Positions 17,334-17,363 of a DNA stretch of 64,000 nt are shown here, piece after piece. Numbering within the stretch: the stretch's first letter is position 1; each line of letters opens with the position of its first letter. The stretch is from a virus. A program made the translations under genes and the position numbers. Under the pieces are notes generated by a model that was not told the origin of the DNA, made no database searches, and saw nothing but the letters and a program-made list of their open reading frames with translations. The stretch spans positions 64,001-128,000 of the IMG/VR virus record IMGVR_UViG_3300037524_002067; one strand, written 5' to 3'.

Positions 17334-17363
17334 TTATGGCGGATTTTCATTTATCTATTTCAT
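17334..17363 (-). other. Mini-ORF ATG AAA TAG ATA AAT GAA AAT CCG CCA TAA (MK*INENPP*)
   Basis: Same MK-amber-IN start as the Pth2-like gene. Confidence 0.5.

Follow-up and report, generated by a model that had tools for sequence, protein, structure and literature searches.

Results

A mini-ORF with an in-frame amber codon follows a suppressor tRNA

On the minus strand of a 64,000-nt stretch of phage DNA (IMG/VR virus record IMGVR_UViG_3300037524_002067, positions 64,001 to 128,000; hereafter the window), a very short open reading frame (ORF) with an amber codon at its third position lies between a tRNA(CUA) cluster and a small gene, 16812-17270. Our results support a model in which this mini-ORF is a leader whose amber codon, when read by the phage suppressor tRNA, probably controls translation of the gene downstream. 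The features on which the analysis centers are as follows (asterisks in peptide sequences mark stop codons).

17363..17334, minus strand: leader mini-ORF, ATG AAA TAG ATA AAT GAA AAT CCG CCA TAA, MK*INENPP*
17355..17357, minus strand: in-frame amber TAG at codon 3, followed by A; proposed gate
17334..17342, minus strand: CCG CCA TAA, Pro-Pro-stop; proposed pause site
17552..17481, minus strand: amber-suppressor tRNA (anticodon CUA), proposed as the key (ARAGORN; Rfam tRNA, 61 bits)
16812..17270, minus strand: proposed gated gene, 152 amino acids, family A1 (homologs at 45-85% identity; AlphaFold2 predicted local distance difference test score, pLDDT, 88)
18392..18000, minus strand: Pth2-like gene with amber codon 3 at 18386..18384 (Pfam PTH2, 2e-8; phrog_1866 aligned from residue 1)

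The leader comprises ten codons, nine of them sense or amber and one the terminal stop. Its ATG lies 15 nt past the last tRNA-like element of the tRNA(CUA) cluster, and 63 nt separate its end from the ATG of gene 17270..16812. The initial annotation had placed MK*INENPP* directly after this RNA cluster, and rereading the sequence gave the same result. In both minimum free energy (MFE) and centroid folds, the start region of the leader (its first ~27 nt) is unpaired, leaving open, A-rich RNA. An Rfam scan over the window leader returned no match at the gathering or E-value threshold.

The same MK*IN prefix opens the Pth2-like gene in synonymous codons (ATG AAA TAG ATA AAT in the leader, ATG AAG TAG ATT AAT in the Pth2-like gene), a match that the initial annotation had correctly pointed out. 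These two starts, which lie 1 kb apart on the minus strand, are the only copies of the motif ATGAARTAGATH in the window, and the complete 154,343-bp genome has no others. The expected number is 0.22 per window, two or more copies were reached in 3 of 100 shuffles, and enrichment of the motif within the genome is borderline. The strict design, an early TAG followed by Pro-Pro-stop, was seen once where a second-order Markov model predicts 0.07 per genome, and a relaxed pattern showed no genome-wide enrichment (8 found, 9.7 expected). Thus, the case that the leader is more than a chance occurrence comes from its conservation in relatives and not from counts within this genome. The expectation that the motif would stand out in a search of the genome and its relatives held for the relatives, in which the early-amber design is kept, and reached only borderline enrichment here. 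Likewise, the MK*IN identity holds in this phage but is not general: elsewhere the Pth2-like gene can begin MK*IH and the leader MKH*VP, and only the early amber and the purine after it are shared between the leader and Pth2 starts of relatives. Separately, a third ATG AAG TAG start occurs at G000:C1:57491 on the minus strand, 6.5 kb before the window start; it reads MK*PNLKWLKP* with a terminal TAG and may lie inside a gene.

The leader design is conserved across phage loci

We compared the leader across 23 distinct phage loci, many of them interrelated, so that the counts below are not fully independent. All share one design: ATG, 1-5 codons (mostly with AAA as the first), TAG with a purine as the next base, 3-6 sense codons, then Pro, Gly or Ser followed by Pro, and a terminal stop. 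The terminal stop is TAA or TGA and never TAG, and the purine after TAG is present in every leader collected. The amber, the frame and the terminal [P/G/S]-Pro-stop are therefore kept in 23 loci while intervening codons and wobble bases vary, which bears out the original suggestion that the amber context is selected. A1 homologs (45-85% identity) on metagenome contigs had the leader in every contig with enough upstream sequence. The leaders recovered by each route were as follows.

A1 route: MK*INENPP*, MKM*INHPP*, MKK*NRAQPP*, MK*NKTHPP*, MKK*NTPQPP*
Pth2/A3 route: MKH*VPNSRPP*, MK*IYRPP*, MK*ISKSRGP*, MKET*IYIRGP*, MTH*IRSP*, MKH*VNRPP*, MKH*INRPP*, MK*TCKPP*, MRY*VLWPP*, MKH*VNPVPP*, MKTSHW*INNRPP*
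IMG/VR DNA pattern scan: MK*IKIPP*, MK*IRRKPP*, MK*IIRAPP*, MK*IRKKPP*, MK*ILNKPP*, MK*IAKPP*, MK*ILNNGPP*
Second IMG/VR scan: MKH*INLIPP*

Leaders precede at least three downstream gene families, of which A1 and A3 were tested and show no detectable relationship. Because the L002 and L003 leaders do not lie beside a tRNA cluster, the leader is linked to the gene and not to the tRNAs. The C-terminal residues vary: RPP ends the leader at 5 loci, KPP at 5, RGP at 2, RSP at 1 and RAPP at L051, while the window leader ends N-E-N-P-P without an Arg. Only the Pro before the stop is universal.

Searches beyond these routes were less productive. INPHARED phage records contained no close relative, only the tRNA being matched; a search of genome contigs gave no further relative loci, and an A1 profile search of viral contigs gave one locus. 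One candidate, L043 (MK*KVKPP*), was left out of the set since its fold had no closing helix and no tRNA(CUA) was among the tRNAs fetched from its contig.

The codons beyond the amber are kept in frame

Several observations indicate that the frame through the amber matters. Across the loci found through neighbouring proteins, a scan from TAG to CCN CCN stop at any spacing gave 14 distinct in-frame instances (9, 12 or 15 nt) against none in another frame. Each Pro codon shares the frame of the ATG, and its third base changes from locus to locus (CCG, CCA, CCT or CCC). The first Pro codon falls outside the helix described below, so that pairing cannot explain its conservation. The initial annotation had proposed that read-through would end at a Pro-Pro-stop, a stalling context, ahead of gene 16812-17270, and the conserved frame and end uphold this proposal.

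The in-frame arrangement is also associated with the suppressor. In matches to the TAG pattern across the virome, tRNA(CUA) was found in the same stretch for 6 of 27 in-frame and 0 of 40 out-of-frame cases (Fisher p = 0.003). A 19-base pattern run on IMG/VR gave 6 matches with tRNA(CUA) nearby, all in frame, and 2 out-of-frame matches, which lay in ordinary coding-like DNA without tRNA(CUA). For a TGA control pattern, none of the 80 matches listed had any suppressor tRNA or leader-like context. Overall, 19 of the 23 leader-bearing fetched stretches contain tRNA(CUA); of the remaining four, those of L004, L008 and L016 are cut at the contig end and L061 is on an incomplete contig. A further example outside the 23, L105, has tRNA(CUA) elsewhere on its contig. 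In L047, L061 and L105, which belong to lineages that use Shine-Dalgarno (SD) sequences, a GGAG-type sequence is found 5-6 nt before the leader ATG.

A covarying helix joins the end of the leader to the downstream start

Base pairing between the leader stop region and the downstream start, which was absent from the initial annotation, supplies a mechanism. The elements in the window are as follows.

17339..17332, minus strand: 5' strand of the closing helix, CCAUAAUG, comprising the second Pro codon, the stop and 2 nt (MFE and centroid folds, RNAalifold)
17274..17267, minus strand: 3' strand of the closing helix, CAUUAUGG, which holds the start codon 17270..17268 (MFE and centroid folds, RNAalifold, cognate pairing)
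17314..17328, minus strand: small internal hairpin in the spacer between leader and gene, not terminator-like (MFE and centroid folds)

All 23 loci have MFE folds in which the start region of the gene downstream is paired with the leader's final Pro codon, its stop and the bases that follow. The closing helix spans 6-20 bp in the 16 tabulated loci and is ~13 bp in group 3. Wherever the downstream gene starts in the context AUUAUGG, the helix has a conserved core; its extensions differ from locus to locus and each matches its own partner only (CCAUAAUUUUGU/ACAAAAUUAUGG in L008, AUGAUUAUUAUU/AAUAAUAAUCAU in L017 and AUCGUUAAU/AUUAACGAU in L033). RNAalifold on six A1-type leaders gave the closing helix as the only consensus helix, with one UA to GC compensatory pair. 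The same program returned no pairs on A3-type leaders, in which the variable segment after the stop was misaligned by MAFFT, and these leaders were assessed by alignment-free comparison of cognate and non-cognate duplexes in place of consensus folding. In this comparison the cognate duplexes had a mean energy of -12.3 kcal/mol versus -5.8 kcal/mol for non-cognate ones, a difference reached in 0 of 100000 permutations, and in 15 loci the cognate partner ranked best of the 23. For 8 of 10 loci, the start region had no equally good partner among the other 20-nt windows within 1.5 kb.

The element that is masked depends on the lineage. The 3' strand tracks the start element in use, covering the AUG where there is no SD and the SD where there is one, so that in L047, L061 and L105 the helix masks the downstream SD and not the AUG. 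Relatives carry spacer hairpins of different sequence at the place corresponding to that in the window. We considered a transcription attenuator and rejected it, as the spacer holds no terminator-like hairpin.

We also located the helix relative to the two stop codons. Its 5' strand begins 8-18 nt beyond the amber in the 16 tabulated loci (15 nt for the window) and at -4 to +3 of the terminal stop. In a bacterial ribosome, the mRNA channel extends ~12-13 nt beyond the first A-site base. Given this reach and the location of the helix, a ribosome at the UAG should spare the helix, whereas one at the terminal stop should sit on its 5' strand. We simulated occupancy by partition function with ribosome footprints forced single-stranded and computed the cost of opening the start region from -20 to +13. 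This cost was 8.2 kcal/mol for free RNA, 8.5 kcal/mol with a ribosome at the UAG and 2.5 kcal/mol with a ribosome at the terminal stop, and the direction of change was identical in 23 of 23 loci (Wilcoxon p = 2e-7).

The suppressor tRNA has few targets in a genome that is not recoded

A phage tRNA(CUA) could also point to TAG reassignment throughout the genome (code 15). We rejected this possibility: stop-to-stop frames of at least 100 amino acids cover 86% of the genome under table 11 versus 89% with TAG as sense, and a genome-wide comparison of the two codes identified only the Pth2-like gene as requiring TAG read-through for its start. TAG terminates 10 of the 139 gene-like ORFs in this genome. 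Since the genome is not recoded, the suppressor tRNA has very few targets in this phage, and its role seems to be the reading of two or three particular regulatory ambers, not bulk decoding.

The Pth2-like gene has no canonical start codon between its TAG and the conserved first strand of the protein, and thus it needs TAG read-through. Its early amber is kept in relatives, and we propose that it is a second amber-gated element of the same module as the leader. One 248-kb phage, L020, has two Pth2-like paralogs, at 2975 and 3980, both with an early amber (MKH*IT... and MKET*IK...), and these prefixes recur on the leaders of other phages (MKH* in L012, L028, L030 and L035; MKET* in L016). From their sequences, it looks as if the amber gate had been exchanged between genes and leaders.

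Several further observations concern the suppressors themselves. The nearest database matches of the window tRNA(CUA) are tRNA-Lys genes of Streptomyces phages, at 80-82% identity, and Lys is also the codon that precedes the amber in most leaders; the suppressor may derive from a tRNA-Lys and insert lysine. In several of the 10 TAG-ending ORFs, a second in-frame stop follows 0-1 codons after the TAG (8529-9233 in the window; 27366-28139 and 53870-54508 in G000), and such tandem stops could be a backup against the phage's own suppressor. Finally, ARAGORN predicts an ochre-suppressor tRNA (anticodon UUA) at L002:359-431 beside the tRNA(CUA), and the L002 leader has TAA as its terminal stop. If this call is right, the terminal stop of that leader would itself be leaky.

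Downstream genes and the tRNA-like surroundings of the leader

The A1 protein encoded in the window is modelled as helical, with a long C-terminal helix (pLDDT 88). A3 is a three-helix protein (AlphaFold2 pLDDT 87.5) with a conserved YAAYGLMRGK...QIEN motif, and it is not detectably related to A1 (hhalign probability 0.1). A provisional third group of downstream genes has an ...AQHLF... motif near the N-terminus. The gated proteins had no match in Pfam, PHROG or PDB sequences, and comparison of the A1 and A3 models with PDB folds (Foldseek, VIA-align) gave no meaningful match, coiled-coil matches dominating for these two helical proteins. ESM Atlas gave no usable lead for them. The A1 and A3 families and the third group are probably tied to translation or tRNA biology.

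Two features in the surroundings of the leader complete the locus.

16175..16825, minus strand: next gene, 216 amino acids, with a 14-nt overlap with the gated gene; no family match
17379..17652, minus strand: short tRNA-like elements flanking the suppressor tRNA, context only (sequence reading)

The pair formed by 16812-17270 and 16175-16825 is kept in L002 and L006, and from the overlap the second gene is probably co-regulated with the first by translational coupling. The 5' untranslated region of the leader starts at the 3' end of the last tRNA-like element. A partial Rfam tRNA match at 17652..17607 covers the acceptor and T arm only.

Related side observations were made in other phages. 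Directly 5' of the leader in L004 (211-281) and L006 (~2300-2370) are tRNA-shaped elements in which a 4-nt loop (GCAA or UUCG-like) replaces the anticodon loop; their 3' terminus, ...CCCCACAAA, is shared by the final tRNA-like element in the window (17379..17400), which suggests that tRNA-type processing makes the leader 5' end. The gated genes of A1, A3 and L020 (third group) nearly all start ATG GAA ACA (M-E-T), including that of the window (17268-17260) and most in L002-L035. The G at +4 of these genes pairs with the Pro codon in the helix, a pairing that does not account for the conserved AAACA. In L001 (973-2560; the L011 record, IMGVR_UViG_3300045902_000666), the leader begins ATG AAA AAT AAA TAG and then reads on as ...R S P V L..., and the A1-family gene is interrupted ~23 codons in by ~1.3 kb of inserted DNA with a gene for a TnpB/OrfB-like protein (start MLKAFKYRLTPTKEQ...). 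Here the switch may be degenerating, or a mobile element may have settled in a gated gene.

Discussion

A leader probably gated by nonsense suppression

We consider it likely that the leader is a translational attenuator of the erm or SecM type in which amber read-through is the input. Its start, in open RNA, would be translated constitutively, while the start codon of gene 16812-17270 would be locked in a helix by the last Pro codon of the leader, its stop and the next bases. In a cell without a working suppressor, ribosomes would terminate at the third codon, the UAG, with the helix still 15 nt ahead, and the gene would stay masked. Once the phage tRNA(CUA) reads the UAG, a ribosome could advance six codons and pause at the Pro-Pro-stop, where both peptide-bond formation and termination are slow and which resembles the RAPP/RGPP arrest motifs. 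The paused ribosome would occupy the 5' strand of the helix and so free the downstream start codon, and by coupling the overlapping next gene (16825..16175) would be freed too. The pause would prolong the time for which the downstream start stays open. Such a pause is in keeping with published work: poly-Pro C-termini slow termination, which is inefficient where Pro-Pro precedes the stop (PMC6412442), and RAPP- or RGPP-like ends arrest ribosomes by themselves (PMC10951233, PMC12992588).

Several points weigh against this model. Translation of the leader, read-through of its amber and pausing at its end are all steps that we infer. The helix in the window is only 8 bp, the window fold alone is no better than that of shuffled sequences (z = -0.78), and the simulated unmasking of the window is modest (7.0 kcal/mol free, 7.8 kcal/mol at the UAG and 5.7 kcal/mol at the terminal stop). 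With the window fold so unremarkable, the structural claim rests on the comparison with relatives, many of which are related to one another. Among those relatives, L020 has a helix of 6 bp, the helix of L048, L051, L057 and L086 covers -27 to -13 and not the AUG, and L001/L011 keeps the early amber without a Pro-Pro-stop. Every example found combines TAG with CUA, with no case of stop and anticodon changing together. There is also a weak sigma-70-like match in the spacer (17315..17287), which is no better than matches in shuffled sequence; were it a real promoter, transcripts without the leader would arise.

Of the alternatives, the one that fares best, although we think it unlikely, is that the leader and helix are real and translated but have an output other than unmasking the start region. 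The pause might block Rho, as TnaC does, protect the RNA from a nuclease, remove a double-strand processing site, or lead to reinitiation at the AUG held in the helix. TnaC likewise ends in Pro-stop and acts via Rho (work cited in PMC6412442). The physical pairing of stop and start codons would favor reinitiation, and the four loci with the 3' strand at -27 to -13 leave the AUG uncovered. Against this alternative stand the 3' strand, which follows the host's initiation element, whether AUG or SD, across lineages, and the opening energy of the start region, which in 23 of 23 loci changes when a ribosome occupies the terminal stop. The spacer also lacks a terminator-like hairpin.

An improbable alternative is that ATG AAA TAG is a two-codon minigene like lambda bar, whose product would tie up tRNA-Lys through drop-off of fMet-Lys-tRNA, with the Pro-Pro-stop never translated and the Pth2-like hydrolase handling the drop-off product. 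Lambda bar minigenes are toxic to Pth-defective hosts. The open start region, the stop at codon 3, the Lys that is the second codon of most leaders and a module partner that resembles peptidyl-tRNA hydrolase would all fit a minigene. It would not account for the strict frame between TAG and Pro-Pro-stop (14 in versus 0 out), the wobble variation of the Pro codons, the terminal stop that is never amber or the constant association with tRNA(CUA), and the codons between ATG and amber vary from 1 to 5.

We give slightly less credence still to the idea that the helix is a conserved start-masking RNA element over which the ORF lies incidentally and untranslated, CCN CCN TAA being kept as the complement of UUAUGG. 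CCAUAAU is indeed the exact complement of AUUAUGG, so that pairing could explain part of the conservation of the Pro-stop end, and the weak fold of the window also counts for this idea. Against it, most loci have a helix that does not include the first Pro codon, and yet this codon is always CCN with a free wobble base. The helix of L016, L017 and L030 begins only beyond the Pro codon, and these loci still retain Gly-Pro or Pro-Pro ahead of the stop. An incidental ORF would also leave unexplained why ATG, amber and frame are all kept and why the leaders of SD lineages have their own SD at the right spacing. Last, a functionless chance ORF or a degenerating copy of part of the Pth2 5' end, which the two motif copies per genome (reached by 3 of 100 shuffles) and the unenriched relaxed pattern (8 versus 9.7 expected) might have suggested, is very improbable and already contradicted by the comparative data, namely 23 distinct loci, at least three downstream families and a helix that covaries.

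Comparison with known systems

The attenuator model places the leader among several known systems. An accessible leader start, a covarying helix that sequesters a start and a pause site positioned on a helix strand are the marks of erm, cat and SecM regulation, and all are found here, the pause site being putative. Like the leaders of ermC/ermB, cat and cmlA, this one is a short upstream ORF with its own start, followed by a start-hiding helix that a paused ribosome would melt. In those leaders the inducer is a ribosome-bound antibiotic, whereas here the input would be suppressor-tRNA activity, or the balance between release factor 1 (RF1) and suppressor. The proposed pause also differs in falling at termination after Pro-Pro, and in most loci the masked element is the AUG rather than the SD.

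Arrest peptides of the RAPP/RGPP and SecM (RAGP) types, found upstream of secA, yidC2 and secDF, likewise unmask a downstream start through arrest (PMC7897499, PMC10951233, PMC12992588), and the leaders described here have similar ends (RPP, RGP, KPP and, in L051, exact RAPP). Those are sensors of protein export with lengths in the tens of residues, whereas the present leaders have 8-13 codons and place the control step, the amber, upstream of the putative arrest site. In prfB, which encodes RF2, an early in-frame stop also senses the efficiency of stop recognition; there a +1 frameshift past UGA senses the RF2 that the gene itself encodes, whereas here a dedicated suppressor tRNA would be sensed, with a separate downstream gene as the readout. 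Lambda bar resembles ATG AAA TAG in being a two-codon phage ORF with an efficient start and a functional link to peptidyl-tRNA hydrolase, but it lacks a conserved in-frame continuation, an arrest motif, a suppressor tRNA and a helix to a downstream start.

The closest precedent in logic is synthetic. Engineered tna and trp leaders bearing UAG, used with an orthogonal tRNA(CUA), also require translation beyond the UAG (PMC6412442), but they act on transcription via Rho, whereas ours is a natural leader that many phages conserve and that seems to act on translation initiation. In eukaryotes, AMD1 similarly combines read-through with a pause at the next in-frame stop and a regulatory effect (PMC13025110), although its extension is 384 nt, it represses its own mRNA by ribosome queuing, and neither a suppressor tRNA nor an unmasking helix is involved. 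CrAss-like and Lak phages with code 15 share with this phage a tRNA(CUA), low GC content and the idea that stop read-through regulates phage genes (10.1101/2021.08.26.457843); unlike theirs, the genome studied here is not recoded. Suppressor tRNAs in standard-code relatives are mentioned in that work only as possible precursors of recoding. Our full-text literature search found no published natural amber-gated leader.

Implications for suppressor tRNAs in phages

A broader reading is possible, though we hold it only tentatively and think it somewhat doubtful: the suppressor tRNAs of standard-code phages could be private regulatory keys, rather than leftovers or first steps of recoding, with a small amber regulon awaiting the phage tRNA(CUA). 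Such a regulon would comprise the Pth2-like hydrolase gated at codon 3 and the genes behind amber/Pro-Pro-stop leaders, and it would be translated only once tRNA(CUA) has been made, processed and charged and is out-competing RF1. If this is true, the circuit would serve the phage as an intrinsic timer, or would let it check the state of the translation machinery, for instance once host defences have cut tRNAs, and if the gated proteins boost suppression, the circuit could become self-reinforcing.

In summary, the leader described here would be the first known natural leader-peptide switch with nonsense suppression as its input, a logic so far confined to engineered circuits, and at ~100 nt it would offer a compact natural part for building suppressor-tRNA-dependent switches. 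It gives the 'orphan' suppressor tRNAs of normal-code phages a concrete target, tied to a conserved module of the Pth2-like gene, the leader and small proteins. If the broader reading holds, such a module would also be a plausible evolutionary seed of whole-genome TAG recoding, which would then have begun as the regulation of a few genes.

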